From a virus (Duplodnaviria; Heunggongvirae; Uroviricota; Caudoviricetes): a stretch of DNA of 64,000 nucleotides. Of the stretch, positions 44,798 to 63,361 are shown piece by piece (the first letter of the stretch is position 1; each line of letters starts with the position of its first letter). The stretch is taken from positions 312,029 to 376,028 of IMG/VR virus record IMGVR_UViG_3300032007_000003; one strand, written 5' to 3'. Below the pieces are notes generated by a model, which saw nothing but the letters and a program-made list of their open reading frames with translations, did not search any database and was not told where the DNA came from. Position numbers and translations under genes: made by a program.

Positions 44798-44943
44798 AGT
44801 TAATTTGTCAAGAAAGTGGAAAAAATACTATAAATCTAAAAAAAAATTGGTTTTTTGTTTGGTCAATTCGAAATTATTTCGTATATTTGCATCGTGAAAC
44901 AATTAAATCAGTTATTAACAATTAAAAGAAAAGGAGAAAAGTT

Positions 44944-46041: not shown

Positions 46042-46046
46042 AAAAA

Positions 46047-46078
46047 TTAAGGGGAGAACGAAATTTCTCCCCTTTTTT
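46047..46078 (+). terminator. Rho-independent terminator
   Basis: AAGGGGAGAA/TTCTCCCCTT followed by a T-tract. Confidence 0.85.
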
Positions 46079-46114
46079 CTTCTTTGTAAATATTTATAAT
46101 AAAATATCATTATT

Positions 46115-46762: not shown

Positions 46763-46805
46763 GATTTTTCTTTGTTAATTGAAATAAATTCCGTATATTT
46801 ACACT

Positions 46806-47177: not shown

Positions 47178-47448
47178 GGATATGAATAATAAGAAGAAAA
47201 AGAAAAAATCATTTCTTAGCAAATATACTAAGATGGATTGTTTAACACTTGGCTTCTTCATTGGTTTGGCTTGTGGCTGTTTATTATCATTAATATAAAA
47301 ATGGTGTAATCTATAGGGGTTACACCTTTTTTTGTAAATAAAGTGGAAAAATATTAATATAAATTGAAAATAATTTGGATTTTGTTTGGCCAGTTGAAAA
47401 TAATTCCGTATATTTGCACCACAGAAAACAATTAAATAGATTAAAATT

Positions 47449-48270
47449 ATGTTAGGTTACAACAAAGCAAAGCAAGAGTTAGGAATTAGCTACTTAGGTA
47501 GCGTAGCACAGAGCATGAAGATGCGTTTATCCTTTGAGCATGGCACAATGACCTATTGTTTGTACCTCGCCCCTTGGAATATGAGTGGGTATAATGTATG
47601 TCCCAAAGGTCAGCATTGCAATGAGTTCTGTTTGAATGGTAGTGGACAGAATAAGTGTGATGAACTTGCAAGAGGTGTGGAAGGTTCTAAGATTAATCGT
47701 TCACGCATCAAGAAAACTCGTCTGTTCTATGAGAATAGAGGCTTATTCATGGATATGCTTACTCATGAGATAGAGAGTAAGAGAGCAAAGGCAAAGCGCA
47801 TGGGTTATGGTTTTAGTGTCCGTCTCAATGGCACAAGTGACCTTTCACCACTCGCATTCAGAGACCCCAAGACTGGTAAGAACATCTTAGAGTTGTTCAA
47901 CGATGTAGTTTTCTATGATTACACGAAAGTCTATAATAGAATACACCTTTTAGGTGAATACCCCAACTATGACCTCACATTCAGTTATGATGGTTATAAC
48001 TGGGACGAGTGCGAAAAGTTCTTACAGAACGATGGTAAGGTAGCGGTAGTGTTCTATTCTGAAAAGGGTATCTTACCCAAGAAGTTTAGGGGTTATGATG
48101 TGATAGATGCAAACGACTACGATATGCGTTATTTAGACCCCAAGCGTTCTATCATGGGATTGCATTACCATAAGACTGCAAACGATTATAAGAGTGGACA
48201 TTTTGTAGTACCAAATACACCATTCGTAATTAATCTTGACAAAGAGAGTGATGTGGATTGGGGATTTTAA
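47449..48270 (+). CDS. Gp88-like phage protein
   Basis: LYLAP...VCP...C..FCLNGSG; VRLNGTSD; FYDYTK; NYDLTFS; DLRYLDP-like motif. Confidence 0.75.
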   Translation: MLGYNKAKQELGISYLGSVAQSMKMRLSFEHGTMTYCLYLAPWNMSGYNVCPKGQHCNEFCLNGSGQNKCDELARGVEGSKINRSRIKKTRLFYENRGLFMDMLTHEIESKRAKAKRMGYGFSVRLNGTSDLSPLAFRDPKTGKNILELFNDVVFYDYTKVYNRIHLLGEYPNYDLTFSYDGYNWDECEKFLQNDGKVAVVFYSEKGILPKKFRGYDVIDANDYDMRYLDPKRSIMGLHYHKTANDYKSGHFVVPNTPFVINLDKESDVDWGF

Positions 48271-48358
48271 TTCCCCACCACATTTTCTAAGAAAAAATTT
48301 GGTAGATTCAAAATAATTTCGTATATTTACATTGTGAAACAATAAAGGAGATTGAGAT

Positions 48359-48601
48359 ATGAGTAAGAAAAGTATAGTTAATGAGATTACCGCCAAACTT
48401 GCAAAGTTAGGTGTGCCCAAAGATGGGTGTCATAATTTGGATATTGAGTTATCAAATGGTGATAAGTTGGCTTGGGTTGGTTATCGTCAGATGATGGTAA
48501 ATATCAAAATTGGTAATGCTCTTTATAGAAATAAGAGATTTCCTCTCTATTCAAAGGGAGTTGATGTCAATATGCTGAATTTGATTAATAGCAAATTATG
48601 A
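48359..48601 (+). CDS. Hypothetical protein
   Basis: Own promoter. Confidence 0.75.
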   Translation: MSKKSIVNEITAKLAKLGVPKDGCHNLDIELSNGDKLAWVGYRQMMVNIKIGNALYRNKRFPLYSKGVDVNMLNLINSKL

Positions 48602-48771
48602 GTGATAAAGTAATAGAGACCATATATTATATATTACTCATATTATTGGTTATAAGTGGCACATGGGCTATACATTGTTGTCCTTAACAAAAATTAACAA
48701 GATTCCTTTGGGAGTCTTGTTTTTTTTGTATATCTTTGCCAAAGTAATAAACTAATAAATTAATAGTAAAA

Positions 48772-49113
48772 ATGGTAGATAACGAAAGTAAAATTTGGGA
48801 AAAACTATGTGGCAAGAAAATTGGTACTGAGAAACTTTCGATAGAGGGTTTTAAGAATCAGATACCATTTGAGATTTTTGATGGCTATGCGTATTGTGAG
48901 AATTATAAGGGTCACAGATATGACATGAGTTATCCACAACTTAAAGCAGTAAGAGAGAGTGAAGAAATGGCTACTGCTGTTATGGATTATATCAACAAGA
49001 TAAGTGATAAGAAACTTGAAAGTGTTGATGAGATTGGTGTTATTCATTGTTTAATTGCTTTCAACACATTGTATCGTGATGGTGTTGAAATCGTACCAAA
49101 GAAAGTAGCATAA
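48772..49113 (+). CDS. Hypothetical protein
   Basis: Own promoter. Confidence 0.75.
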   Translation: MVDNESKIWEKLCGKKIGTEKLSIEGFKNQIPFEIFDGYAYCENYKGHRYDMSYPQLKAVRESEEMATAVMDYINKISDKKLESVDEIGVIHCLIAFNTLYRDGVEIVPKKVA

Positions 49114-49118
49114 GGATT

Positions 49119-49292
49119 ATGGCAAAGTTTACAATACAATGTAATTTCAATGCGTCTTACACTACCGAGGTAGATGCAAAAGATGAGGGCGAAGCACTTG
49201 AAAAGGCTCGTAATAAAGCAGAAGAAGCGGATTTGAAAGAGTTTGTAATTTGTGGTGAGCGTGAATCACAGATACTTAGTAGGGGAGATTAG
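49119..49292 (+). CDS. Small hypothetical protein (57 aa; EVDAKDEGEALEKA)
   Basis: Hand translation; resembles 49473-49685. Confidence 0.7.
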   Translation: MAKFTIQCNFNASYTTEVDAKDEGEALEKARNKAEEADLKEFVICGERESQILSRGD

Positions 49293-49329
49293 CGTTTCAT
49301 AGTTTTTTATTGTTTTATATTAGTTGTTC

Positions 49330-49367
49330 CATGTGGGGTTGATGAGTGTTCATCGACCCCATTTTTT
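49330..49367 (+). terminator. Rho-independent terminator
   Basis: TGGGGTTGATGA-GTGT-TCATCGACCCCA followed by a T-tract. Confidence 0.85.
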
Positions 49368-49472
49368 GTTAAAAAGGGTTAAAATCCCAGAGTTTTTCCT
49401 CAATTTCCTTTGTTAATTCAAAAAGATTTCGTATATTTGCACCATAGAAAACAATTAAAAGGAGATTTAGAT

Positions 49473-49685
49473 ATGAAGAAGTATTGGTTATTAAACGTGA
49501 CTGGTGTCGGTGGTTATTCCATCATGGTACACTGCGAAGCAAACACAATTGAAGAAGCACTCTGCCAAGCAGCAGAAGCAGACCTCTTTGATGATGAAAT
49601 TGATGCTGAAAACGCTTATGGTGAAGAAGCAGATGAAGATTCTATTAAACATTTCAAAGAGCACAATTTGGTAGTTGAACTTTAA
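49473..49685 (+). CDS. Small acidic hypothetical protein
   Basis: Start moved to MKKYW after AAGGAG. Confidence 0.75.
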   Translation: MKKYWLLNVTGVGGYSIMVHCEANTIEEALCQAAEADLFDDEIDAENAYGEEADEDSIKHFKEHNLVVEL

Positions 49686-49690
49686 GAGTT

Positions 49691-50146
49691 ATGGTAGAAG
49701 CAAAGTTAAGAGTTGAAATGTTAGAGAATAGAGAGGGTAGCAAAAACCCATTCTACGGCTCTACATTGGTCAAAAAAGTGGTTGAGGATATTCATATCCA
49801 TGACTTTGACAAACGCAGCGATATTGCCCCTTGTGGTGTTAATGCCACAATCGCCATTGATACTGAGGTGATACTTGGCGAGGGTGAAGAACACTTAAAG
49901 ACAAAGAGAGTGTTTGACATTAGAGTGAATAGGTTCTATTTCGACCATGAGGGTAGTGGCGGTTATCTCGCTTTCTTCTCAATCGAGGAAAAGGTTTATG
50001 AACTCTTTGTAAATTTCGAGGGTAAGCACATCACCAATATTACACTTTCAGAGTGGTTGCAGAGTGGTAGTTTTGAAGATGGTGACGATGCGGATAATGT
50101 CTATAATGCAAAGGATTTTACTATTATCAATATAATAGAAAGTTAG
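49691..50146 (+). CDS. Hypothetical protein
   Basis: Packed ORF. Confidence 0.75.
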   Translation: MVEAKLRVEMLENREGSKNPFYGSTLVKKVVEDIHIHDFDKRSDIAPCGVNATIAIDTEVILGEGEEHLKTKRVFDIRVNRFYFDHEGSGGYLAFFSIEEKVYELFVNFEGKHITNITLSEWLQSGSFEDGDDADNVYNAKDFTIINIIES

Positions 50147-50151
50147 GGAAT

Positions 50152-50301
50152 ATGGAAGAAGCAATACAAGACATCAGAGATTGGGCTGAGAAGTATGGTG
50201 ACGCTGCTTGTCTTAACAGACTACTCGACATCATGGCAGACCAAATGAAAATCGCTGAAGTGAAGAGATTAGCAAACGAAATATGGGAATATAACCATTA
50301 A
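50152..50301 (+). CDS. Small hypothetical protein (49 aa)
   Basis: Hand translation. Confidence 0.6.
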   Translation: MEEAIQDIRDWAEKYGDAACLNRLLDIMADQMKIAEVKRLANEIWEYNH

Positions 50302-50420
50302 ATGTTAAAATGGGTTAAAACGCCAGATAAAATTTGGTTAGTTCAAAAATAATCCGTATATTTACACCACAAGAGAAATAAATAACATTATTAATAATTA
50401 AAGAATAGGAGATTAAAACT

Positions 50421-50969
50421 ATGGCAAAAGAGACAAAGAAAACAACGATTGATGCACGTGTACGTGCAATTGCAGAGAGTGGTAGTGGTAAGGGTGTTGG
50501 TATGCCCAAGTGGTTTACTTTACCGCAGAATAAGGACAAGCGTGACCTCCATATCAACATCTGTAAGAAACTCGCTGAGTTGTCCAACGCACATAACAAC
50601 TACCCCATCACCTACTTGGTGTATTTCGCTGTGGGCAAGAACGCACACCGCCTTTGCACATTCCTTGGTGGTTATGAGAAGATTGACGAGAAGAAAGCGG
50701 AGACTATCTTCAAGTGGCTTACGCTGTTCGCCAAGCATCACAAGAACGAAAAGTTGTTCAAGAATCCCAATGTCGCCCATGCGCTGTGTCGTTTCTACGA
50801 CAAGTATAGCACCAAGACAAAGGATTTCAAGGCCGCTCTCGATGCTTCTGAATCCAACCCCAACATTGACGTGAAGAACGCTAAGATGTCTGTTGAGACA
50901 CTTGGTATCGCCAAGAAAGTTGAGGTTGTTGCAGAGGAAATGGAAATGGCTATGGCTGCTGTCGAGTAA
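50421..50969 (+). CDS. Basic hypothetical protein
   Basis: Own promoter and terminator (TGGTGGGG/CCCCACCA near 50980-51005). Confidence 0.8.
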   Translation: MAKETKKTTIDARVRAIAESGSGKGVGMPKWFTLPQNKDKRDLHINICKKLAELSNAHNNYPITYLVYFAVGKNAHRLCTFLGGYEKIDEKKAETIFKWLTLFAKHHKNEKLFKNPNVAHALCRFYDKYSTKTKDFKAALDASESNPNIDVKNAKMSVETLGIAKKVEVVAEEMEMAMAAVE

Positions 50970-51085
50970 GACAAAGTTATGGTGGGGTGAAATAATCCCC
51001 ACCAACTTTTCTGAAAAAAAAGTGAGATTTTTCTTGGTCAATCCAAATTAATTTCGTATCTTTACATCGTTAAAGCAAAAGAGTT

Positions 51086-51304
51086 ATGGGTACATACGAA
51101 ACAGAGTTGGGTTACATCGTAAGAGAGACCCTTGGTGGTTTGGAAGTCACAGAGGACGATAAGGTCATTTGCACACTCGATGGCAAGACCCTCGAAGACT
51201 ATCGTGACGAGAACGAAAATATTGATGATGATGCACTCGAAGCAGACATCCGTGAGGTGGAAGAAGCAGAGGATTTCTTAGCCTATCAGAAGGAATACTG
51301 CTAA
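51086..51304 (+). CDS. Small acidic hypothetical protein
   Basis: Own promoter. Confidence 0.75.
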   Translation: MGTYETELGYIVRETLGGLEVTEDDKVICTLDGKTLEDYRDENENIDDDALEADIREVEEAEDFLAYQKEYC

Positions 51305-51418
51305 CAAATGTTAATGAGTGCAAATTTCTACAAAAAAATTTGGTAGTTTCAAAAAATTTTCGTATATTTGCATCGTGAAACAATAACAAAGTATTAATAA
51401 TAAAAAGGTAAAAGCAAA

Positions 51419-51592
51419 ATGAGTGGACAGAAGAAACTCAATCGAGCGATTCGAAACAACCGAGTGGTAGCAATGCCCTCGAAGAAGAAAGAAGTGCCGA
51501 TTCTTGACCGAGACGGACAGAACGTTCTTGATAAGGATGGAAAGCCTCAAGTAGAAACTATTCAGCTTTACAAAATCAAGAAGTTGAAGTAA
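51419..51592 (+). CDS. Small basic protein (57 aa, not in track)
   Basis: Hand translation MSGQKKLNRAIRNNR...; own promoter at 51363. Confidence 0.7.
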   Translation: MSGQKKLNRAIRNNRVVAMPSKKKEVPILDRDGQNVLDKDGKPQVETIQLYKIKKLK

Positions 51593-51600
51593 TGATTGTC

Positions 51601-51930
51601 TAACTTACTAAAGAGGAAAGATAATGGAAAGACCTCCGCCCTCATAAGGGATTAAGTTTAGGAATATGTTTTTAGAAAAATTGCCGATAAACTTTAAGGG
51701 GAGAACATTTAAAGGCGAGATTGCCCCTATGCTCGCAAACATCGAAGTGATGATTAGAGACCGACCCTAAGTAAAGAATATTTACCACCTCTACCCATGT
51801 CAATGTGCATGGCTTGGCAAGGTCATAAGACCGAAAAAAATAAATACAAGTAATAGAATATATAGTGAGGTGGGAAGTGCCGCCCCAAGCGTTTGCGCTG
51901 TCTTTGGCTGCAATCCCCCTCACACTTTTA
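51601..51930 (+). ncRNA. Candidate structured RNA(s)
   Basis: Three-way junction at 51602-51658, H-type pseudoknot at 51697-51736, hairpin at 51865-51922. Confidence 0.4.
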
Positions 51931-51933
51931 ATA

Positions 51934-52056
51934 CGCCCTATGATGTGGTTAAGATTGGGATAATCTATAGTAATGCCCTATCAAGACTGACATACGTTGC
52001 ATAATTAAAACGTTCAATGGTTGTGTGATAGATTGATTCGATTCAGTATAGGGTAC
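51934..52056 (+). ncRNA. Candidate tRNA-like RNA with long internal arm
   Basis: GCCCT/AGGGT ends, GATTCGATTC T-loop-like element, CTATCA/TGATAG arm. Confidence 0.35.
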
Positions 52057-52061
52057 AAAAT

Positions 52062-52148
52062 GCGCCCATAATTCAGTTGGTAGAAATCGTGCCGATGTTT
52101 ACATCTTGTGTGCTCGTATGCCGTAGGTTCGAGTCCTACTGGGTTGCA
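52062..52148 (+). ncRNA. tRNA-like RNA or degenerate tRNA without a canonical anticodon arm
   Basis: D arm ATTC-AGTTGGTA-GAA, perfect T arm GTAGG-TTCGAGT-CCTAC, bulged acceptor GCGCCCA/TGGG(T)TGC. Confidence 0.65.
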
Positions 52149-52219
52149 CTTATGCTCGTTTTGCGTTGTGGTAACGCTCTTTGTTTTCCATAATTTGAAT
52201 TGTTAGGTTTTTAGTTTTG

Positions 52220-52260
52220 ATTGGGTGATGTCGTGAGACATTGCCCAATTTGTGTTTTTT
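52220..52260 (+). terminator. Rho-independent terminator
   Basis: TTGGGTGATGTC-GTGA-GACATTGCCCAA. Confidence 0.8.
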
Positions 52261-52334
52261 AACATAAAAAATTTGGTAGATTCGTTATTTTTTCGTATAT
52301 TTGCATTGTAAAACATTAAATAAGGAGATTGATT

Positions 52335-52628
52335 ATGAGAGTTAAGCATTTCGCTGGCTATGGTTCAGTTGAGGTAAAGAAAGTCTTGAAGAAGGCTATC
52401 ATCAACGGATACGGAGAAAATAAGACAAAACTCATTTTGCGTGTAAAAGGTAATCACGAGTGGGGTATTGTTCGTAATGACATCTTTGATGTTAGAGATT
52501 GGATATTCAATAAGTTTGAAAAGAACTTTAATGGTGATGATTATGACATCTATATGGATGTTCAAGACGAATACATCAAGGAAAATGGTATTGATGTTGA
52601 GGTAGCAACTTATACATTTATATATTAA
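52335..52628 (+). CDS. Hypothetical protein
   Basis: Own promoter; AAGGAG. Confidence 0.8.
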   Translation: MRVKHFAGYGSVEVKKVLKKAIINGYGENKTKLILRVKGNHEWGIVRNDIFDVRDWIFNKFEKNFNGDDYDIYMDVQDEYIKENGIDVEVATYTFIY

Positions 52629-52703
52629 AAAGCGTTAAAAAGTTTGGTGGTGTGAAAAATATTCTGTATATTTACACCATCAAATATTAAATAAGGAGAT
52701 ATT

Positions 52704-53507
52704 ATGGCAGATTTAAATTTAGTTGAAAGAGCAAACAAAATTATCACATTCCGTAAGTATATTCGTGAGGAGTGTCGCAAAAAGGGTTTGGAATATCCAT
52801 CAGATGCTAAGATTTCCGAATATATTGCCGATTGTGGTGGTGACGAGTGTGTATATGACCTCAACGATTTCATGGGCGACTATGAGAATAAGATTGGTAT
52901 TTTCAAAGACCCATTCGATGATTTCAAGGCAGAGGTATCAAAGCACGATTGGGTTAAGACTACTGATGAAGAAATGCGTGACTTCATTACAGAGCAAGGT
53001 TACAATGTACGTGGTTTCTTGCGTTGCAAAATCATTGGTAGCTATAAGCCACTGGAGAAAGACATTCTCGTTGCTACGCTCTCAAAGCTGACTACCCCTC
53101 AATTAGTTCAGTTGTGGAACAAATTCATTGAGGAAAGTGCTGTTTATGGCGAGGATTCTTATATCTATGACCTCACCAAGCAAGACGATGTAAATTTGCT
53201 TCGTGGTGGCTTAAAACCATCTGAATGGGCAAAGGTTGTGGGCTTTAAGTGTCGTTATGTGTCTTGGCACAATCTCAATGATGGCAGACTGCTCAAATAT
53301 GACGATGAAGGCATCAAAGGTGTGATTGTTGGCTATTGGAGTGACATTTTCCCTCGTCTCATGGTTTGGAGTGAGTTGTACGATACGATTGGTGAGGGTA
53401 AGGATGGGATTGCTTACTTTGACTTCATTGTACGACCAATCATCTGTAAGTATCTTGGGTATGAATATGACCCACAGAGAGGAACATTTGAGGAAATTAA
53501 AAAGTAA
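52704..53507 (+). CDS. Hypothetical protein
   Basis: Own promoter; AAGGAG. Confidence 0.8.
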   Translation: MADLNLVERANKIITFRKYIREECRKKGLEYPSDAKISEYIADCGGDECVYDLNDFMGDYENKIGIFKDPFDDFKAEVSKHDWVKTTDEEMRDFITEQGYNVRGFLRCKIIGSYKPLEKDILVATLSKLTTPQLVQLWNKFIEESAVYGEDSYIYDLTKQDDVNLLRGGLKPSEWAKVVGFKCRYVSWHNLNDGRLLKYDDEGIKGVIVGYWSDIFPRLMVWSELYDTIGEGKDGIAYFDFIVRPIICKYLGYEYDPQRGTFEEIKK

Positions 53508-53794
53508 ATTCACTATGTTTGGAATATTTCTGCTTTTCTGTATGGCTGTTATGGTGTGGGACATTACAAGTGACCCACACTATACCACCAAAATGAAAGA
53601 TTTGGAGGAGGATTAAAAATGGGTTATAATAAAGAATTGGCATCTGCTTGTCACCTTTTGTTTGCTTATGCCTCAGAGCATAAAGAAGATAAAGAGCTTG
53701 AGGCAATAGCAAATAAGTTTGATAAAATTCTATACAATAGAAAATAAATCCATAATAATTTGGAATTGTCGATATTTATTTATATATTTGCAAT

Positions 53795-54082
53795 ATGAGT
53801 ACAATAGGACAGAATTTTAAACAAGCAATCAATAATAACTTTAAGCATAACATGATTAATCGTGATGCTGAAAGTATCTTCACTGCTCTTAACATTGGAG
53901 TTAAGGATAGTGATAACATGGTTGTGCTTCCAAAGGTTGAAAAAATTGAATTAACTAAGATTGATGACTTACACGATAAGTTATCATTATCTTGGGATGA
54001 CTATAAGACAGAGGGAGTAATAACATGGAGACCATCGAAAGTTGAAAACTCAAAAGCAATGGTTTTCTGTAATATCGAGTAA
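53795..54082 (+). CDS. Hypothetical protein, probably leaderless
   Basis: ATG 5 nt after -7 box. Confidence 0.75.
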   Translation: MSTIGQNFKQAINNNFKHNMINRDAESIFTALNIGVKDSDNMVVLPKVEKIELTKIDDLHDKLSLSWDDYKTEGVITWRPSKVENSKAMVFCNIE

Positions 54083-54158
54083 GTTTTTAATGAAATTAAA
54101 TAATTTTTTCACTCCCAATGTCCGTGATGGATGGTTTGGGAGTGTTTTTTTTATATGA

Positions 54159-54242
54159 GCCACGGTGGGGAAACTAGGTTAGACCCAGCAGACTTAAAAT
54201 CTGCCGCTGTAAAGCATCCCAGTTCGAATCTGGGTCGTGGTA
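54159..54242 (+). tRNA. trnL: tRNA-Leu (TAA), CCA not encoded
   Basis: Acceptor GCCACGG/TCGTGGT, anticodon arm GCAGA-CT-TAA-AA-TCTGC, long variable arm, T arm CCCAG-TTCGAAT-CTGGG. Confidence 0.93.
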
Positions 54243-54389
54243 CATAAATTTAATCTCCTTTTTCAAGTGGGAAATGTTAAAGATTGTTAAAATCCAGACA
54301 TTTCTCACTAATTTTTTTGGTAGATTCATTATTTTTTCGTATATTTGCATCACAAATAAGAACAATTTAAAAGAAAAGGAGATTAGATT

Positions 54390-54638
54390 ATGAGAAAGTA
54401 TCAAGAAGAAATTTACAATGCCCTTGTAAGCAAGAAAAAGGCTTGGGGTGGTAGTAATTCAGTTGTGAACACTGATAAGAATATCACAGAGGTATTCTAT
54501 TATGGCAATAGAATTGCGGTTATTAACCACAACACTAAGAGCGCAACGTTTGACAACTGCGGTTATACCAATGCTTCTACAACAGCACGTATCAACGCTT
54601 GCAAGATATATTGCGACAATTATGGTTACACCTATTAA
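54390..54638 (+). CDS. Hypothetical phage protein
   Basis: VFYYGNRIA...GYTNASTTARINA; own promoter. Confidence 0.8.
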   Translation: MRKYQEEIYNALVSKKKAWGGSNSVVNTDKNITEVFYYGNRIAVINHNTKSATFDNCGYTNASTTARINACKIYCDNYGYTY

Positions 54639-54651
54639 AGTAGATTGAGTT

Positions 54652-55095
54652 ATGGTATTCGATAGAAACATAGAGTTAAAAGAAAAGCAAGAAAAGTTGC
54701 TTGCTGAACTCCGTAAGATAGTTGGTAGGGGATTTGTATTCTCCGAAGCCTATTTAAAGCAATGTAACTGGGAAAGTAATCGCATTGGTGAGGGAGAAAG
54801 ACAATTTGGCAAAGTAACCAAGAAATACGTTTATGTGCCTTGCAGAGCGATTTATACTACAAATGATGATGGCACGGAGTATGGCGCAAAGATTTTGAAG
54901 TATTCTGTATGCACAACGCAAGGGAATACAGATAAGATTGCATTGGAAGACTTATATGTCAAGGATTTGGAAAAGATTATCAATGACATTAAGTTTGCTA
55001 TTTGGTGGGAGAAAGATGTAAGAATGAAGAAAATTGAGGCTGAAATGGCAGATTGCCAGAAGTATGTGGATTTATTTGATAAATTCTTGAAATAA
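54652..55095 (+). CDS. Hypothetical protein
   Basis: Packed ORF. Confidence 0.75.
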   Translation: MVFDRNIELKEKQEKLLAELRKIVGRGFVFSEAYLKQCNWESNRIGEGERQFGKVTKKYVYVPCRAIYTTNDDGTEYGAKILKYSVCTTQGNTDKIALEDLYVKDLEKIINDIKFAIWWEKDVRMKKIEAEMADCQKYVDLFDKFLK

Positions 55096-55304
55096 TAAAT
55101 AGATTCATTATATTTATAGTATATTCCAAGGGAATTATGAGGGATTCCCTTGGATTTTTAAGGAGATAACCTTTTTAAATCAATAAGGATTGGTATTGGG
55201 GAATGCCAATCTTTATTTTTTTTTTTGAAAATTTCTTCAGATTTTCTTGGTCAATTCAAAATAATTTCGTATATTTGCATCGTAAACAAATAAAGAATAA
55301 GATT

Positions 55305-55700
55305 ATGAGTAATTCAAAAGTTAGAAAGCAGTTAGAAGCACGGAGTAAGAATGAGAAGTTGTTGGAAGCCTACAAGAAAAAGGCTGACCTCATCCTCAAC
55401 TATCAGATGTGCAAAGCATACTATAAGGATAGTGGTCTTTCTATCCTCGCCATTGTAGAGAAAATCTTAAAGATGAAGTATAACTTGCCTTGGCAAGAAA
55501 AACTGATTCGTAAGGCTCTAAATGAGGCGAGAGGTAAGACAAATGCAACTATCACTATTCCTCAGTTTAAATATGAGAAAAAGGTGCATGATATTCTTGC
55601 CGAGTTTGTTGAAAAGAACTTGAATAAGATGGCACGAGAGACATCTACAAGGGGATTGTACCCACTTGCATTTATCGATATGGTAGAGAAATTTTCATAG
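55305..55700 (+). CDS. Basic hypothetical protein
   Basis: Start moved downstream of promoter 55270; terminator GTGGTGACTAGG/CCTAGTCGCCAC follows. Confidence 0.75.
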   Translation: MSNSKVRKQLEARSKNEKLLEAYKKKADLILNYQMCKAYYKDSGLSILAIVEKILKMKYNLPWQEKLIRKALNEARGKTNATITIPQFKYEKKVHDILAEFVEKNLNKMARETSTRGLYPLAFIDMVEKFS

Positions 55701-55873
55701 TCGTAATCTTTTTTGTTTTTGGACGTGGTGACTAGGTAATCAATCAAAGCCTAGTCGCCACTTTTTATTTAAAAAAATGTTAAAATCCAGATTTTTATAC
55801 GAAAAAATTTGGTAGATTCGTTTTTTTTCCGTATATTTGCACCACAGAAAACAATTAAAAGGAGATTAGGAAT

Positions 55874-56593
55874 ATGGAATTAAGTGAGATTAAAGCAATT
55901 GTTACGAACAACTACTCAAAGCAGTATCGTGCTCATGTAGTTAATGGTGGCTCTAAGGTTGTTCGCCTTTGGCAGACAGATGATGGACGTATTGCCATCA
56001 TGAGCAAGGGAAGAAAGAAATATGGACATGAGTTATCATTATGGTACGACCATTATGACGAGTGGACAGATTTACGTCTCGTTGAGCACAAGGAATTTGA
56101 CTACTACAAGCGTTTCGTTAAGCGTGCTAATGATGCCTTGAAGATGCTGAATGAGAGTGGTTTGTGGACAGACATCAAACAGAGTATTGAGCATTTCTTT
56201 ACACTTTCAGAGGCTGAACAGAAAGAATTGATAAACGACATTATAACAGATTCTTATGAATTGTTTTATAGTGAAGTTTACAAAGAAAATGGTAAGTATG
56301 CCTGGGTGCATAGTTATCAAGTATTTGAAGCCTTTGTGAGAAAGACGTGTTGGAAGTCTATTGCATGGCACAGATGGGAACGTGAGGAAATGAGCAAGCG
56401 AGTTGCTGAGTGCATCAAGAATGGTGGCAAGTTTTCAAGACGTTGGGAAAATGGCTATGATAACACAGTCGAGGTTGCAAATCTCAATGGTGAGAAACTT
56501 GCATGGTATTCAGAGGAATACAGAGGTTGCGGAAATGGACATTATTACTTGATGTTTGATGCTACTCATGCAATATTCTATGAGGACGATTAA
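55874..56593 (+). CDS. Hypothetical phage protein
   Basis: C-terminal WYSEEYRGCGNGHYYL; own promoter. Confidence 0.8.
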   Translation: MELSEIKAIVTNNYSKQYRAHVVNGGSKVVRLWQTDDGRIAIMSKGRKKYGHELSLWYDHYDEWTDLRLVEHKEFDYYKRFVKRANDALKMLNESGLWTDIKQSIEHFFTLSEAEQKELINDIITDSYELFYSEVYKENGKYAWVHSYQVFEAFVRKTCWKSIAWHRWEREEMSKRVAECIKNGGKFSRRWENGYDNTVEVANLNGEKLAWYSEEYRGCGNGHYYLMFDATHAIFYEDD

Positions 56594-56680
56594 AAAAGGG
56601 AGAAAAAAACTCCCTTTTTCCTTGGCTATTTAAAATAAATTCCGTATATTTACATCACAAAACAATTAAAGATTAGAATT

Positions 56681-57070
56681 ATGGAATATACAATGAAGAA
56701 AATCGGTAGCAAATATCCGAGCAACGCTATCCTCAAGGAAATGTATCAAACCATTATGCTCTACATTAAGGGCAAAGGCAATATGTTTGCCATGACAGAG
56801 AAGTGTCGGCAGTATTTCACTTGGGGTGCAAATGCTTTCAAGTATATCGTCTCAGAAGATGGCTGCTATGGCATTCAGTTCAATGTAACTGGTCTGCTTC
56901 ACAGAGGTCGAGTAAGAATTTACTACAATATCGGTTCTGATTATTTCGATGTTGAATTGCTCCGTGCAAGGAAAGATGAAATGGTTTGGGGTGCTGAAGA
57001 TATTGATTTTGAGCAACTGCATAACATTCTTCATCGGCACATCGAAAGAACTGATGATGTAGAATGTTAA
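56681..57070 (+). CDS. Hypothetical phage protein
   Basis: GIQFNVTG..HRGRVRIYYN.GSDYFDVE; own promoter. Confidence 0.8.
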   Translation: MEYTMKKIGSKYPSNAILKEMYQTIMLYIKGKGNMFAMTEKCRQYFTWGANAFKYIVSEDGCYGIQFNVTGLLHRGRVRIYYNIGSDYFDVELLRARKDEMVWGAEDIDFEQLHNILHRHIERTDDVEC

Positions 57071-57137
57071 AAACGTTAAATTGTTTGGCGGAATGAAAAT
57101 AATTCCGTATCTTTACATCACAAAACAATTAAAGATT

Positions 57138-57536
57138 ATGGCAGATTTAAAGAGTTTTATTAAGAAGTGGGATGGTCGTACCTTAGAGGACGATGGTGAG
57201 TATATATCAAAGGAATTTCATTCATTCCAAGTGAGTTTCTTTAACGCAATGAGAAAGATTGCTGCATCCCTTGGTGGTGAGGTTGTTAACCCTTGCTATG
57301 GTCATTATGATATGTGTGGCTTTGTTAAGAGAGGCGACAAGTATGTGTTCTTTAACTATTCCAATGGTTGTGGTCGTGGCGGCAGAAGTCACGTTGCATT
57401 GAAGAACGATGGCAATTGGCTCACTCCAATGTATTGTAGAACAGCCAAACACGATAAGGATTGGACTGGTGGAAGCAATAACAATTGCTACTTTGAAGAT
57501 TGTGAGAGCGTTATCGAGAGACTATTAAATTCTTGA
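57138..57536 (+). CDS. Hypothetical phage protein
   Basis: GHYDMCGFVKRG..YVF; YCRTA.HDKDWTGG.N; start moved to MADL. Confidence 0.8.
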   Translation: MADLKSFIKKWDGRTLEDDGEYISKEFHSFQVSFFNAMRKIAASLGGEVVNPCYGHYDMCGFVKRGDKYVFFNYSNGCGRGGRSHVALKNDGNWLTPMYCRTAKHDKDWTGGSNNNCYFEDCESVIERLLNS

Positions 57537-57538
57537 TT

Positions 57539-57661
57539 ATGGCAACATTACATATATATTGGGATGATGATGTAACCGTTGAGTTGCGTTATTTCCCATC
57601 AGAAAAGAGTGCAAAGCAATACGCTAAACGCAATGGTGTTGTAGATTATAATATTGATTGA
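57539..57661 (+). CDS. Micro-ORF (40 aa)
   Basis: Hand translation. Confidence 0.55.
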   Translation: MATLHIYWDDDVTVELRYFPSEKSAKQYAKRNGVVDYNID

Positions 57662-57715
57662 ATTGTTAAAAACGTTAAATTGTTTGGTGGAATGAAAATA
57701 ATTTCGTATATTTAC

Positions 57716-57970
57716 ATCGCTTAAGAGAAATAAACGTGGGTCAAAAAACTGCCAATGTTCTGCGCAGATTGGTAGTGGTGGTGCAAGTTATGGTATTTGT
57801 GACGATAATCCGTCTTGTACGATAATTTTCAAGTTGCATCACATTTCCCACATTTTATAAGATATAGGGCAAGAATGTGTTGAAAGATGGGATTGGGTAG
57901 CCATCGCAAAGAGGGGATAAGGATTGCCCGCACGAAAGCAAAATCAAACCCCCCATGTCTTGTCTTTTTT
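57716..57970 (+). ncRNA. Candidate structured ncRNA with its own promoter (two domains)
   Basis: Promoter at 57707, no ORF, multiple long stems, T-tract at 57965-57970. Confidence 0.65.
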
Positions 57971-57997
57971 GAATGATTTTTCAATCAAATCTCCTTT

Positions 57998-58034
57998 CCG
58001 ACCTCCAAGTGTTAAAAAATTGCACTTGGAGGTT
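57998..58034 (+). terminator. Hairpin/terminator
   Basis: ACCTCCAAGTG/CACTTGGAGGT. Confidence 0.75.
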
Positions 58035-58110
58035 ATTTTTATACGAAAAAATTTGGTAGATTCAAAATAATTTCGTATATTTGCATCAGAAATAAAAAAG
58101 ATTAGAGATT

Positions 58111-58350
58111 ATGGGAATGTTTTGTAACAATGACAAAAAGCACTACTGCGGAAGATACAAGGGTATTGATGTATGGCAGTATGGTAGCATGATAGGAAAT
58201 AATTGGTATGGTGATTTCTATGTTACCATTCCGAGGGGAGCAACAAAGCGGAACATGAAAGTTAAGGATAGTGTGTGCCGTTCTCTCGATGCCGTTAAGG
58301 AGTATATTAACAACCATTTGGAAGAACTTAAAAAGGAGAGCGCAAAATGA
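58111..58350 (+). CDS. Hypothetical protein
   Basis: Own promoter. Confidence 0.75.
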   Translation: MGMFCNNDKKHYCGRYKGIDVWQYGSMIGNNWYGDFYVTIPRGATKRNMKVKDSVCRSLDAVKEYINNHLEELKKESAK

Positions 58351-59024
58351 GTGTAAGGAGTGGAAAAGAAACAAAGCGTACCCCAATGGAACTTTATAAG
58401 GGGTATCGTGTTATCAAGGTGACGAAAATCGAATATCATCGTTGCCTTTGGGATGAAAGCCGATTCGATAAAGATTGGATTGATAAGAAAGAAGTGCATT
58501 TTGATTTCTGCAAAGAGGGTAACGAGAAACTCCCATCGCAGGATTATAATGTGCAAGCAAAGAACGTTGAGGGCTGCAAAGAAGCAATAGATAAGTTCCT
58601 CAATGGTGATAACAAGGGTAATGGTGACATCTACTATACTCATGCGGAATTTCAGAAGTATGTTAAATCACCCAATAATAAGTGTGATTATGGCTACGGC
58701 TACGATTCTCTTATGAGAGTGATGCGAGAGCACCAAAAGGCTGATAAGCGTATGAAATGGTTTCTCGAAGAGAGATTGCATGACGCAAATTTCCATCCTG
58801 AGGGCGATATTCTTTCCACTTGTGACTATGCCAAGTTCGAGGAATATGTAACCAATACAAATCCTTTTAAGGAGAAGTTTGAGGTTTATACCAAGACGCT
58901 TAAAAAGCGTATCAAAGACCCAAAGAGCCTTGAAGATGGTTTAAATAAGGTGATTAGCGATTACCTTGCAAGTCAAGGAATAAAAGATACATCTGTGGTG
59001 GTGAGATTCTGTGAAGAATGGTAG
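58347..59024 (+). CDS. Hypothetical protein
   Basis: ATGA overlap. Confidence 0.8.
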   Translation: MSVRSGKETKRTPMELYKGYRVIKVTKIEYHRCLWDESRFDKDWIDKKEVHFDFCKEGNEKLPSQDYNVQAKNVEGCKEAIDKFLNGDNKGNGDIYYTHAEFQKYVKSPNNKCDYGYGYDSLMRVMREHQKADKRMKWFLEERLHDANFHPEGDILSTCDYAKFEEYVTNTNPFKEKFEVYTKTLKKRIKDPKSLEDGLNKVISDYLASQGIKDTSVVVRFCEEW

Positions 59025-59159
59025 CCATAACGAAGTTAAGTATGTGAATGTTTGTTAAGTGGGAAGAGATTATTTTTATATTAATTTCTTCCCATTTTAT
59101 TTGGCTAATTGAAATAAATTCCGTATATTTACACCATAACAATTAAAAGGATATAAGAT

Positions 59160-59381
59160 ATGGATATTAAAGAAGTAAGAAATAATCTCATTAAGGATTT
59201 GGAGAATGAATACACTCCAACTGAAATAGAGTTGATTGACATCCGTTTGGACGAAATCGCTGAAATGGAACACATGAGTCTTGAAGACTTGGACTACTAT
59301 TGCACAGCCAATTCAAGCGAAATGTTTGCTTGCATCTTTGATTATAAGGAGTTTAATAAAAAGAACTTTGAAGTAGATTGA
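59160..59381 (+). CDS. Small acidic hypothetical protein
   Basis: Own promoter. Confidence 0.75.
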   Translation: MDIKEVRNNLIKDLENEYTPTEIELIDIRLDEIAEMEHMSLEDLDYYCTANSSEMFACIFDYKEFNKKNFEVD

Positions 59382-59384
59382 GAC

Positions 59385-59615
59385 ATGAAATACGGAATGA
59401 CAATTGAGTATAACAACTCAGACCCAAAGTATATCAATGACATTACAACTTGGGGTGATGTGTTGGACACTCTCAGACATAGATTAGACCAATTGACAAT
59501 TAGAGTTCACATCTATAAGTGGTCAAGTAATAACAGATGTCTTGGGCATAGATGCGTTACAATGGGCAATCTCTATTTCGTGGCTTGCTCACCAACTGAT
59601 AAGATATTAATATAA
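59385..59615 (+). CDS. Hypothetical protein
   Basis: Packed ORF. Confidence 0.65.
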   Translation: MKYGMTIEYNNSDPKYINDITTWGDVLDTLRHRLDQLTIRVHIYKWSSNNRCLGHRCVTMGNLYFVACSPTDKILI

Positions 59616-59633
59616 ATTTAAAATAAAGTAACA

Positions 59634-59858
59634 ATGAGAAGAATTGCGATTATTGACCATGCGACTCACGAGTTGATGGTTGAAGATGTGAACGAAACCG
59701 AGTTAGAAAAGTATGGCGGTGACGAACAAGCCTACATTGATGACAATTACACCTTTGAGGGTGATTATTCGTGGGACTGGATTACTGATGCCCAATACTT
59801 TAACGAGGATGGTGATATTATTGAGATTGATTTCGATGAAATAGGTGACATTTATTAA
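59634..59858 (+). CDS. Small highly acidic protein
   Basis: D/E-rich, 74 aa. Confidence 0.75.
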   Translation: MRRIAIIDHATHELMVEDVNETELEKYGGDEQAYIDDNYTFEGDYSWDWITDAQYFNEDGDIIEIDFDEIGDIY

Positions 59859-59945
59859 ACGTTAAATCTGAGTTGATTTTTTGGTTAATTCAGATTTTTT
59901 TCGTATATTTGCACCAAGAAATAAATAAATAAAGGAGATTAGATT

Positions 59946-60341
59946 ATGTGGTTTAACAACAAATTCAACAAAGACAACACGATTCACTTTGATGTGGAAG
60001 AGTGGGTTTGCACAGATGTAGACGAATGTCAGTTCTGTAGAAAGATTAGTGATACGGAGTTTGAGTACATTCAGTTGAAGAATGACGATTTGAAGAAATT
60101 CGTTGAGACATTTCACTTGGGCAACAAACATTTGCTTTCAGTTCTGAATGACCGCACCACAATCGCTGATTGGTATCAGAGTGAGACAGATGTGAACGAT
60201 TACGATGCGGAGCAGATTGGTGAGTATCTTTCGCCTTATGGCGGTATTCTTGATGGTGTGACTGATGATGTCGAGCGCAATCAGTTGATTGCAGAGTGTA
60301 TTTTTGAAACTGATGATGTAGCAAACGATTGGTATGAGTAA
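59946..60341 (+). CDS. Acidic hypothetical protein
   Basis: Own promoter; TDVDECQFCRKI...IAECIFET. Confidence 0.8.
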   Translation: MWFNNKFNKDNTIHFDVEEWVCTDVDECQFCRKISDTEFEYIQLKNDDLKKFVETFHLGNKHLLSVLNDRTTIADWYQSETDVNDYDAEQIGEYLSPYGGILDGVTDDVERNQLIAECIFETDDVANDWYE

Positions 60342-60600
60342 GAATGTTAAAGTAGTCTATTATGTGGACATTGACGATAATACGAAGGGGTGTTTGTGTG
60401 CTATTCCGTCTGATAAAGATTTGCGTGATAGCTGCATAATCCAAAAGGTAGCTGATGAAATCAAGTCAGTATTTGAGCCAATACACCAGCTAATGGGAGA
60501 GCATTCTGTTGACCTTGCCAAAGCGGTTTGCCATCATGGATATTCAAATATCTTTGAGTATGAATTTGGCGTTGAAGAAGTGCCACTCATTGAGTGTTAA
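60334..60600 (+). CDS. Hypothetical protein
   Basis: Packed ORF. Confidence 0.7.
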   Translation: MSKNVKVVYYVDIDDNTKGCLCAIPSDKDLRDSCIIQKVADEIKSVFEPIHQLMGEHSVDLAKAVCHHGYSNIFEYEFGVEEVPLIEC

Positions 60601-60679
60601 AAATGTTAATTCCCTTGGTCAATTCAAGGGAATTTCGTATATTTACACCATCAAATAATAATTAAAAGGAGATTAGAAT

Positions 60680-61141
60680 ATGGCAAAGAAGATTTTTACA
60701 AGCAAGATGATTCCCGAACTTGTCTATAAGGTAGTAGGTGAGGATTGGCTTGATGGCAAGACCTATGTGGTTTGTTTCCAAGAAATGAAAGATGGTGATG
60801 GTGATGTTTATCATCTTGAAGTGGAATACCATAAGGATGAGAATAAATTCACTTATACAAGGGTATATGCTTATGAGAATGTTCATACTGCATCCATAAG
60901 TGCTACATTTAAGAATCAGTTTGAGGAATACATCATGCAGCAAGTAGGCGAATTGCGTGAGGGCAGTTTCATCAACGTTCAGAGTGTTCCACTTGAATTG
61001 AAGTTGGAGATACCAAAGGAAACAAGCGTTGGTGAGGTGCATGAGTTCCTAAGAAGCCTTAAATTTGAGGTGGTTCATACAATGACACCAAAAGACGAGA
61101 AAAAGATAAGGATATTGGAGATAAAGAATAAAAAATTGTAA
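60680..61141 (+). CDS. Hypothetical protein
   Basis: Own promoter; AAGGAG. Confidence 0.8.
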   Translation: MAKKIFTSKMIPELVYKVVGEDWLDGKTYVVCFQEMKDGDGDVYHLEVEYHKDENKFTYTRVYAYENVHTASISATFKNQFEEYIMQQVGELREGSFINVQSVPLELKLEIPKETSVGEVHEFLRSLKFEVVHTMTPKDEKKIRILEIKNKKL

Positions 61142-61242
61142 CAATAAAAGTGTGTGGTGTGCGAGTACAAAATATCATTACGATTGAGTACCGCACCCCC
61201 ATAATGGGAAAATTAATATAAAATTAAAATAAAACAAGAACT

Positions 61243-61521
61243 ATGGCAAAGGAGTTAGCAAAGATGCGGTCAATCCGCACAATGCAAGTTGAGGTACGCA
61301 CCTCATTAAACAATCGTGAAGAAGCAAATAAGGCTATTCGTTTGGAGATTGCCCCCATTTGGACACCCAATAAGGAGGAACGCTCAGAACGTTTAACGAA
61401 TCTGACAAAGGCTCTTGTTGAGGGTCGTGCAAAGGTACGTGACTATCAAAAGGGGCTGCGTGAATTGAAGCACGAGTTGAAATCAACAAATCGTGCTTAT
61501 GACCTCTCAAAAGGGGAGTAA
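61243..61521 (+). CDS. Basic coiled-coil hypothetical protein
   Basis: Intact ORF. Confidence 0.75.
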   Translation: MAKELAKMRSIRTMQVEVRTSLNNREEANKAIRLEIAPIWTPNKEERSERLTNLTKALVEGRAKVRDYQKGLRELKHELKSTNRAYDLSKGE

Positions 61522-61615
61522 ATGTTAAAAACACTAAATTAACTGGAGAAATTGGATTAATCGTTTGGTTAATCCAATTTTTTTTCGTATCTTTGCATCA
61601 ATAAAATGAAATAAT

Positions 61616-61906
61616 ATGGAAGAGTGGAAAGTTATAGAGTTTGAACCTCGTTATGAGGTATCTAACATGGGTAGGGTGCGTAATCGTAACACTGGTCGTA
61701 TTCTCACTACCAATCCTACCAAGTCACATAAGAGACCGCAAGTTTGGCTTTACAATGACTATCACGGAACAACTTGTCAGTACTCTCTTGCAAAGGTTGT
61801 GCTTTCTACATTTAATCAGAATGTGGATATGTGGGGTACAAAATGTGTGTATCATCGTGATGGAGACATTATGAATTGCAAATTGGAGAATCTCTATGTA
61901 AAATAA
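61616..61906 (+). CDS. NUMOD4-motif protein with degenerate HNH
   Basis: EEWKVIE..PRYEVSNMGRVRN; HRDGDIMNCKLENL; lacks the usual HRLVA histidine. Confidence 0.75.
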   Translation: MEEWKVIEFEPRYEVSNMGRVRNRNTGRILTTNPTKSHKRPQVWLYNDYHGTTCQYSLAKVVLSTFNQNVDMWGTKCVYHRDGDIMNCKLENLYVK

Positions 61907-61974
61907 TGGAGATTTTCCTTGGCTAATTCAAAATTATTCCGTATATTTACATTGTTAAAACAAAAAGGGTTAAT

Positions 61975-62241
61975 ATGAAGAAAAAATTAGAACAAGAAGT
62001 TAAAAAGATTGACAAGAAGCTTAAGCGTGGCGACAGAATTGAGTTGCTATATGATGGTGAGGAAATTGCTCGTTATGACTTCACAGAGAGGTCTATTGAT
62101 TGCAAGACACCTTTGCAATGGCTGCGTGGCTGCTTTGTATTTGAGATTGACCTTAAGGGTCGTGACATCAGCAAGGTTGCGCTTAAGCATAATAAAGCAA
62201 TCAATCTATCAATTGGTAATTGTGGGATTACTATAATCTAA
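61975..62241 (+). CDS. Hypothetical protein
   Basis: Own promoter. Confidence 0.75.
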   Translation: MKKKLEQEVKKIDKKLKRGDRIELLYDGEEIARYDFTERSIDCKTPLQWLRGCFVFEIDLKGRDISKVALKHNKAINLSIGNCGITII

Positions 62242-62248
62242 AAAGAAT

Positions 62249-62578
62249 ATGGATAAAGAAATTACAATAGGAATTGAGAAATTGATTGCAATGTTTGTCG
62301 TTGCAAAGGGTGAGTTTAATGGTGAAGAGTTTGAATATTTCCCAAAGTTACCAAAGCCATTCAGCGAGAATTTAACAATCAAGTTTACAGAGTGTGTGTT
62401 CAAGGGGGATTTGTTATCACTCCGTGTTAACAACCAATTTGGTGTTGAACTTTGGTTTATTGATAACAATGAGGAACAATACTATTTTGATTGGGAAGCA
62501 ATAAATATGTATGCTCCAACACTTGCAGCAATCGTATTCACGCACATATTTGATATGATTGAGAACATTGAAATCTAA
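62249..62578 (+). CDS. Hypothetical protein
   Basis: Packed ORF. Confidence 0.7.
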   Translation: MDKEITIGIEKLIAMFVVAKGEFNGEEFEYFPKLPKPFSENLTIKFTECVFKGDLLSLRVNNQFGVELWFIDNNEEQYYFDWEAINMYAPTLAAIVFTHIFDMIENIEI

Positions 62579-62639
62579 AAAAATGTTAAAATGAGGAAAA
62601 TTATTTGGTAATTAAAAAAAACAAATATATCTTTGCAAT

Positions 62640-62882
62640 GTCAGCGAGACAGAAATAAAGTAAGGTGATTAGGAATAAAATACCTCCTTTCTGTAAATAG
62701 GTTTTTGATACGTTCCTCTCAAAGATTCTCAGCGGAGAACACCTTACTTTTTCAAGGATATATTTGGAAGATACCAGAGGAGAACTATCCGCAAGGGTAG
62801 ATGTAGACAAATGGGCATTAAGTTCGTGCTTGATGTGCTTCTTCGGAGGCTTCGTGGTGTGCAAATCCCACTCTTCCAACAA
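62640..62882 (+). ncRNA. Candidate two-domain ncRNA with its own promoter; 3' domain tRNA-like
   Basis: 11-bp AAAGTAAGGTG/CACCTTACTTT stem; TTGGAAGA/TCTTCCAA acceptor-like stem, GCAA and TTCG tetraloop hairpins, T-arm-like element. Confidence 0.7.
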
Positions 62883-63033
62883 ATCTAATCTTTTTAATTG
62901 TTACTGATTCTTGTCGTTGTGGGTGATAGCAATTCGGCTATCACCCTAATTTATTTGTTAATATATCTTAATAAGTTTGGTCAATTAAAAATAATTTCGT
63001 ATATTTGCACCATAATTAAAAAGAGAATAAGAT

Positions 63034-63303
63034 ATGGCAAGAAGAAATATTGAGCATTTGTCTCGCATTGTGAGTAGTACAGAGGGCAACGAGGGGAGAA
63101 AAGTATTTCAATTGATTGGTTTCCCTAATGAAAAGGGTGACTACACTTCAAATGTTGTACGTTGTGTTCCCAAATCCATTGCAAAGGCTATGCGCTATTA
63201 TGGTACATTCACAGATGATGAAATAAGGGTTATCAATGCGCTTTCTGTCGGTGCTTATAAGAATTGGGGTGCTGAAAAGTGTATGGTGGTTAGAATAGCA
63301 TGA
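63034..63303 (+). CDS. Hypothetical protein
   Basis: Own promoter. Confidence 0.75.
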   Translation: MARRNIEHLSRIVSSTEGNEGRKVFQLIGFPNEKGDYTSNVVRCVPKSIAKAMRYYGTFTDDEIRVINALSVGAYKNWGAEKCMVVRIA

Positions 63304-63361
63304 TTAAAAAATGGGATAATCTTTTGGTTATCTCAATTTTTTTTCGTATATTTACACAGTT

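Follow-up and report, generated by a model that had tools for sequence, protein, structure and literature searches.

The 64,000-nt stretch of phage DNA analysed here (the window; C1:312029-376028 of a 412-kb virus record) carries on its plus strand an RNA element made of two modules, a leader with a hypervariable arm (domain 1) and a tRNA-shaped unit (domain 2) which, judged by its sequence, derives from a Bacteroidales tRNA-Tyr. The identity of this RNA is regarded as practically certain. The initial annotation had described a novel tRNA-mimic RNA, and this description was upheld: its helices covary, the D/T elbow is retained, the anticodon loop has been lost and no Rfam family matches. Domain 2 belongs to none of the decoding tRNA-Tyr, YrlA and GOLLD groups. 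The features of the element, and of one related gene elsewhere in the genome, are as follows.

62604-62635, plus strand: Bacteroidota-type promoter (-33 box 62604-62607, -7 box 62628-62635)
62639-62651, plus strand: short 5' hairpin at the inferred transcript start, seen in the sequence; relatives have a similar post-promoter hairpin
62657-62750, plus strand: domain 1, leader three-way junction closed by P1 (62657-62667 with 62740-62750)
62668-62723, plus strand: hypervariable P2 arm ('cargo'), about 20-123 nt among leaders and mostly unrelated in sequence between lineages
62682-62692, plus strand: exact 11-nt copy of the Bacteroidota 16S rRNA 3' tail (A1534-U1544), including the anti-Shine-Dalgarno (anti-SD)
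62724-62740, plus strand: conserved P3 hairpin with an AGCG-type loop, stacked directly on P1
62764-62880, plus strand: domain 2, tRNA-Tyr-derived unit (123 bits with model R1)
62764 (U-1), 62765-62771 with 62872-62878 (acceptor), 62879 (A73) and 62880 (C74), plus strand: ends of domain 2
62774-62814, plus strand: D arm of host tRNA-Tyr type, with a 3-bp stem (62774-62776 with 62812-62814), G13.A22, G15 and elbow bases A18-G19
62780-62803, plus strand: 24-nt insert between D-loop positions 15 and 16, with conserved purine-rich ends, a variable hairpin and a GNRA loop
62816-62835, plus strand: remodelled anticodon arm, 7-bp stem with a 6-nt UUCGUG loop and no anticodon
62837-62850, plus strand: long variable arm followed by a tRNA-Tyr-type UUC linker, C48 opposite G15
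62854-62871, plus strand: T arm, 5 bp with one bulge, and a G55 loop as in the phage's own tRNA-Tyr
62921-62946, plus strand: intrinsic-terminator-like hairpin, conserved in position among relatives and missed by the initial annotation
L164:8762-9188 (C1:273761-274187): GOLLD-like gene of divergent sequence, scoring 79 bits where the gathering score is 150

The carrier is a giant phage of rumen bacteria, and the RNA runs with matches came from bovine gut or bovine metagenome samples. Its 412-kb genome contains 54 tRNA calls, a tmRNA and one GOLLD-like gene. From the Bacteroidota -33/-7 promoter type, together with tRNA likeness, we infer that the host is a Bacteroidales bacterium. The element lies near the end of a promoter-gene cassette array in the window, and in four other complete genomes the domain-2 unit is found at the corresponding position; the family has 2-5 copies per phage genome. 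In the second copy of the present genome (C1:273259-273379), the acceptor contains mismatches and contact 18-55 is mixed (A18/U55), which is seen nowhere else in the family. In five genomes, 8-10 of the 20-24 promoter-led cassette genes had an SD-like AGGAG 4-18 nt before the start, which is unusual for a Bacteroidota host; such cassettes were located at 43900-63360 of the window and in L418-L421. The tRNA complement of the phage had peculiarities of its own. A tRNA with a CUA anticodon (amber suppressor type) was found at L164:11411-11486 (C1:276410), even though TAG was the stop in 43 of 487 crude ORF calls, and long variable arms were present in tRNAs for Met, Gln and Asn, besides a tRNA-like gene of 122 nt that has a large additional arm (L164:10328-10409, L166:8791-8876, L163:16254-16340, L165:2116-2237).

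The -7 box at 62628, from which a dedicated promoter had been proposed, was confirmed as part of a Bacteroidota -33/-7 promoter, a type with 43 sites on the plus strand of the window, and in relatives the same promoter stands in front of the leader. The earlier view that the element contains no credible ORF was also sustained. Two mechanical ORFs overlap it (93 aa on the minus strand and 47 aa on the plus strand), and neither is conserved as a frame, because lengths differ between family members in all three frames (67/51/51); protein coding was therefore rejected. Each domain folded better than its shuffled versions (z -2.44 and -2.67), whereas the whole 251 nt reached only z -1.8. RNA libraries of four studies contained contigs with the locus or with domain-2 relatives, and one contig of a relative spanned P3 and domain 2. 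This evidence consists of assembled contigs from four runs (X1, X3, X4, X6), in which rare forms are dropped and depth is unable to rank expression. Moreover, a near-identical contig in X1 had a depth equal to that of the upstream gene and started inside the promoter, so that it may derive from DNA or read-through. The stretch from promoter to terminator is thus described as a putative transcription unit, for which the RNA contigs are no proof of a dedicated transcript.

A D-arm pattern search recovered 44 viral stretches, some of them by chance, and at least 118 metagenomic stretches, and a profile search gave 169 distinct parsed members of the domain-2 family. The family appears to be restricted to phages: no member was found by exact pattern in GTDB genomes, and model R1 run on 151 host-family genomes found none, its sole hit being a tRNA-Tyr. 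No meaningful match was obtained among 50,697 isolated phage records. Over the element, Rfam 15 gave no match at E<=5 and ARAGORN made no tRNA call, and a search of the openly accessible literature by topic and motif retrieved no published description of the family. The domain-2 unit is mostly leaderless and stands in tandem arrays with 3-5 nt spacers, which corrects the previous picture of a single RNA with a tRNA-like 3' domain. Two other small structures were seen beside family copies in relatives and were absent in the window: immediately 3' of the unit, another tRNA-shaped RNA of a different kind whose central part varies (L170, L094, L004, L113, L169 and others), and a conserved small hairpin directly 5' of many copies (L002, L003, L037, L134 and others).

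Comparison of family members gave strong evidence for the cloverleaf. Among 66 diverse members, 99.7% of cloverleaf cells were paired, against only 34-44% in slid controls, and 22 of 29 pairs changed on both sides; these cells count sequences rather than events, with kinship ignored. All arms covary, with a 7-bp acceptor and a 5-bp T stem. The tertiary contacts behave likewise, in that contact 18-55 covaries (A18.G55 in 162 members, G18.U55 in 6, mixed in 1), contact 13-22 covaries (G13.A22 in 163, A13.C22 in 6), and G19-C56 and G15-C48 are maintained across the family. The covarying arms and contacts therefore indicate that the RNA very probably keeps the tRNA L-shape. The A18.G55 elbow variant also recurs among phage tRNAs of the L163/L164 cluster, where every tRNA with G55 in the T loop (Tyr, Leu-UAG, Arg-UCU and two Met) has AG for GG in the D loop.

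All the stems named in the initial annotation were found in place, and several of them could be redefined. The arms of domain 2 are present, although its 3-bp D stem had been missed and the GCAA hairpin proved to be part of the D-loop insert; the 8-bp acceptor-like stem does pair, and is in fact U-1, a 7-bp acceptor and the discriminator A73. The expected marks of tRNA processing are almost invariant (U-1 in 166 of 169 members, A73 in 169 of 169, C74 in 168 of 168). The first pair is U1:A72 in 168 of 169 members and G2:C71 is also fixed, while acceptor pairs 3-7 vary freely. The observation that there is no canonical 7-nt anticodon loop was correct: a 6-nt UUCGUG loop on a 7-bp stem is present in 131 of 169 members, the window copy included, and all seven pairs of this stem covary. 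The D-loop insert measures 20-43 nt across the family, and its hairpin loop is GNRA in 135 of 169 members. The insert ends and the UUCGUG loop are new invariants, absent from host tRNA. A kink-turn or loop-E at the insert was rejected, since it would need A18, which covaries with 55. A resemblance of G11 variants to the sarcin-ricin loop over 10 nt was explained as the result of an 11-24 swap on an ancestral tRNA-Tyr sequence, and the D arm, on inspection, did not match the core consensus of the hairpin ribozyme.

With the insert removed, six host tRNA-Tyr genes ranked first among 266 host and phage tRNAs, a set whose host side is dominated by Ile and Ala. When model R1 was applied to the phage's own tRNAs, tRNA-Tyr again came first (50.8 against 37.8 bits). 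A resemblance to phage tRNA-Cys in the T arm had been pointed out, which turned out to be superficial, and an origin from tRNA-Cys was rejected because tRNA-Tyr scores far higher. The host tRNA-Tyr has a nearly identical D arm, and the A13.C22 variant is also seen in a host tRNA-Tyr; the phage's own tRNA-Tyr shares U1:A72, G2:C71 and the G55 T loop with the family. Furthermore, intermediates exist, namely four members with a canonical GUA loop and 26 with GUA but G33, and insert-less copies of the family in L155. Domain 2 resembles the class II tRNA-Tyr(GUA) of Bacteroidales (RF00005) in its cloverleaf and D/T elbow, D stem, D-loop flanks, 13.22 pair, G15-C48, long variable arm with UUC linker, A73 and 7/5 acceptor/T stems. 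It differs in the 24-nt enlargement of the D loop, in U1:A72 where the host tRNA-Tyr has the bacterial G1:C72, in the A18.G55 elbow, and in the UUCGUG loop on a 7-bp stem in place of a 7-nt loop with U33 and GUA; neither ARAGORN nor RF00005 called it a tRNA.

YrlA-type Y RNAs (RF02553) are phage or bacterial non-decoding tRNA mimics that keep the D/T elbow, and in this respect domain 2 is like them. Unlike YrlA, however, it has no RF02553 match and a canonical order of arms, and no Ro60 (TROVE) gene was found in the phage genome. A weak YrlA-like match does occur at L164:5469-5578 (29.5 bits), equally without a TROVE gene, and similar weak matches are present in three relatives. Allo-tRNA and tRNA-Sec are defined by 8/4, 9/3 or 8/5 acceptor/T stems, whereas the split in domain 2 is 7/5; cleavage at -1 could make the acceptor 8 bp. 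As for GOLLD, no RF02032 match was obtained over the element. Most leaderless members nevertheless recall the neighbour tRNAs of GOLLD (RF02032), 69 of 109 having a GOLLD-like RNA no more than 1.5 kb downstream, and a family copy precedes such an RNA in each of the six genomes examined. In the present genome it is the second, partly degenerate copy that precedes the only GOLLD-like gene, by about 380 nt. In contrast, the window copy is a separate unit about 100 kb away, and none of 23 leader-led copies had a GOLLD-like gene within 1.5 kb. The IMG/VR-derived motif DNAVirus_1423, which sometimes overlaps tRNA-Tyr calls (PMC10690425), is a possible counterpart, set beside the family by description only.

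Sequence comparison indicates that the leader is a second module, separate from the tRNA-like unit. P1 pairing is kept in 37 distinct leaders, and P3 shows double-sided changes in four of five stem pairs and in the closing pair. All 37 lie between a promoter and a domain-2 family member, and no leader lacking a following tRNA-like unit came up in a leader-first scan; eight leader-pattern matches in unrelated contigs were rejected, being without P1 and promoter. The AGGAA/TTCCT stem described earlier is present at its site, although it is lineage-specific and unconserved among leaders. The core consensus of the hammerhead ribozyme was not matched by domain 1 on inspection. In L108 and L160, the P2 arm contains two tandem near-identical hairpins, an arrangement such as might be expected of a protein-binding sponge.

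The P2 arm of the window copy carries the 16S-tail copy; the tail sequence was taken from host genomes and numbered by our own count. This 11-mer occurs once in 412 kb, and the chance of finding it in a 57-nt arm is about 3e-6. It was present in two of 37 leaders, those of the window and L170, between which it is the best-kept block. In L170, its flanks have diverged and it lies in an open loop, while it is partly paired in the window copy. We regard the copy as real and probably selected. Matches of other leader cargos to rRNA (8-12 nt at scattered sites) were at chance level, an anti-SD-like 10-mer in L155, within a short reading frame, was left uncounted, and a loose scan for P1 with an anti-SD gave only chance matches. 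A precedent is provided by OLE RNA, a non-coding RNA whose anti-SD mimic in P6 binds bS21 (PMC12054373). In OLE, however, a large RNA of Bacillota, the mimic measures 6 nt and forms part of an SD-like duplex, whereas here a perfect 11-nt copy of the host 16S 3' tail is placed in a variable phage arm and is not kept across the leader family.

We tentatively propose that domain 2 is released by RNase P and acts as a non-decoding decoy of tRNA-Tyr against a host defence nuclease, a reading to which we give somewhat less than even confidence. According to this proposal, the promoter would give rise to a precursor of about 310 nt, from which host RNase P and 3' trimming with CCA addition would produce a 115-nt tRNA-shaped RNA and the leader. 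Such processing is suggested because the elbow, U-1, A73 and C74 are invariant and the spacers are short; RNase P and RNase Z both read the tRNA elbow (PMC4810234). The host tRNA-Tyr body (D stem, elbow, long variable arm and A73) is kept in the 115-nt RNA, as sequence and covariation show. With its anticodon loop replaced and the 24-nt insert in its D loop, this RNA would be unable to decode and would presumably be excluded from the ribosome. It could then tie up a host defence nuclease that targets tRNA-Tyr (Septu/PtuAB, for example), with tyrosine decoding sustained by the tRNA-Tyr, TyrRS and RtcB of the phage itself. The leader may serve as a scaffold for the display of short, exchangeable motifs, which in this lineage would be the 16S 3' tail.

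Previous studies have documented that Septu (PtuAB), in E. coli, and retron-Eco7 cut the variable arm of tRNA-Tyr, and that T6 escapes Septu by amplification of tRNA-Tyr (PMC13096335, PMC12673091). The decoy proposal is consistent with the presence of 2-5 copies per genome, with the intact tRNA-Tyr, RtcB, CCA-type enzyme and TyrRS encoded by the phage (the last a TIGR00234 match, with a TyrRS-class gene in all six genomes, the window phage and five relatives), and with adjacent ptuA-ptuB pairs in the likely host family. Anticodon nucleases had originally been suggested as the enzymes to be decoyed; this is unlikely, because the anticodon loop is the very part that has been replaced; a nuclease cutting the variable arm fits better. 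The anti-defence tRNA-Tyr genes of T5/SP15 and T6 are comparable in being phage-borne, in having a tRNA-Tyr body with an altered variable arm, and in their strong promoter or raised copy number (PMC11555353, PMC12673091, PMC13096335). Those tRNAs decode, however, and the T5 type needs its anticodon, which domain 2 does not possess. Indeed, the rescue by T5/SP15 from retron-Eco7 is lost on anticodon change, so that this tRNA acts by replacement and not as a decoy (PMC11555353). Other observations also weigh against a decoy. The invariant insert ends and the UUCGUG loop go beyond what a plain decoy needs and, being absent from host tRNA, indicate a specific partner; PtuB exceeded the cut-off in only 6 of 151 sampled host-family genomes; cutting of tRNA-Tyr is known for E. 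coli Septu, and Bacteroidota ptuAB is known here from genes alone. The many leaderless copies just upstream of GOLLD-like RNA, the ambiguous origin of the RNA contigs, and a host assignment based on promoter type and tRNA likeness point in the same direction.

The position of those copies supports a different role, in which the unit is a processing signal and/or a partner for neighbouring RNAs: an RNase P cut would set the 3' end of the leader and free the GOLLD-like RNA, and the released unit might be cargo or adaptor of GOLLD. This role is possible, if on the unlikely side. The invariant RNase P marks, the copy preceding GOLLD-like RNA in every genome examined and the constant association of leader with unit agree with it, as does the proposal that GOLLD cages hold phage tRNAs (10.1101/2024.12.08.627333). 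However, the distance of the window copy and of all leader-led copies from a GOLLD-like gene does not, and up to five tandem copies, a conserved insert and the UUCGUG loop would be superfluous for punctuation. It is less probable that the unit is a ligand or substrate of TyrRS, either as a tyrosylated non-ribosomal carrier or as an inhibitor of host TyrRS that shifts charging to the phage TyrRS and tRNA-Tyr. Bacterial TyrRS reads A73 and the long variable arm (PMC1934993), both of which are retained in the family; TyrRS is the only synthetase found in the phage, where the I/L/M/V, G/H/P/S/T and D/K/N classes were searched for and not found; and the phage tRNA-Tyr has the same first two acceptor pairs as the family. 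Nevertheless, 131 of 169 copies have lost the anticodon, a main determinant, and the family's first pair is other than the bacterial G1:C72. In addition, the tRNA-Tyr genes of G002 and G004 have C1:G72 with a divergent TyrRS, yet family copies there keep U1:A72, so that the family does not track the resident TyrRS. The C1:G72 pair of these two tRNAs (L453:16155-16241 and L455:17803-17889) is of archaeal/eukaryotic identity, and the TyrRS in L431 and L430 has GIHH/GVHH where that of the window phage has HLGH; they are possible natural orthogonal pairs.

Similarly doubtful is a modulator directed at the ribosome, in which the unit would bind through its elbow and the 16S-tail copy would titrate bS21, bS18 and bS6 or pair with phage SD sequences. 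The 11-mer is exactly the 16S stretch held by these proteins (PMC7797042), its occurrence by chance is improbable, it is better kept than any other block shared with the L170 leader, the OLE precedent exists, and AGGAG precedes 10 of 23 promoter-led cassette genes against 1 of 52 elsewhere. On the other hand, the copy is confined to two leaders and the AGGAG enrichment also occurs in three relatives without it; pairing of the cassette SDs reaches only -8 to -9 kcal/mol, compared with below -13 kcal/mol in rpsU control (PMC9976891); the motif is partly paired in the window copy, unlike in L170; and no bS21 gene was found in the phage. Quite improbable, in our estimation, is a combination in which RNase P divides one transcript into two decoys, the tRNA-Tyr mimic, which would block a defence nuclease that cuts tRNA-Tyr, and a scaffold with swappable bait. 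In this lineage, that scaffold would offer the 16S 3' tail to draw off bS21, bS18 and bS6 and unmask the anti-SD, and host ribosomes would then favour the SD-bearing cassette genes of the phage. A working tRNA, either directly or after splicing out of the D-loop insert, is very unlikely. Removal of the insert would restore a normal tRNA-Tyr D loop, the phage has RtcB and four members keep the canonical GUA loop, but 131 copies, including that of the window, would still have the 7-bp stem and 6-nt loop. No contig skipping the insert was found in the four runs, where rare forms are dropped on assembly, while several read through it, and the phage tRNA-Tyr is intact. A decaying tRNA pseudogene, for which the mismatched second copy might speak, is hardly credible: covariation in every arm already contradicts decay, as do the invariant new motifs and the fixed position in four other complete genomes.

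In conclusion, the known counter-measures to tRNA-cutting immunity are working replacement tRNAs, from which a pure RNA inhibitor would differ. If the domain-2 RNA is a decoy, its conserved, multi-copy tRNA-Tyr body, with decoding given up and two new invariant motifs gained, would represent a different strategy. The 169 natural variants reveal what is retained of the tRNA-Tyr body, which is relevant to the unresolved recognition by PtuAB (PMC12673091), and the family also offers a handle on GOLLD. If the 16S-tail copy is functional, the phage would have an RNA directed at the pocket of the Bacteroidota ribosome in which the anti-SD is sequestered.
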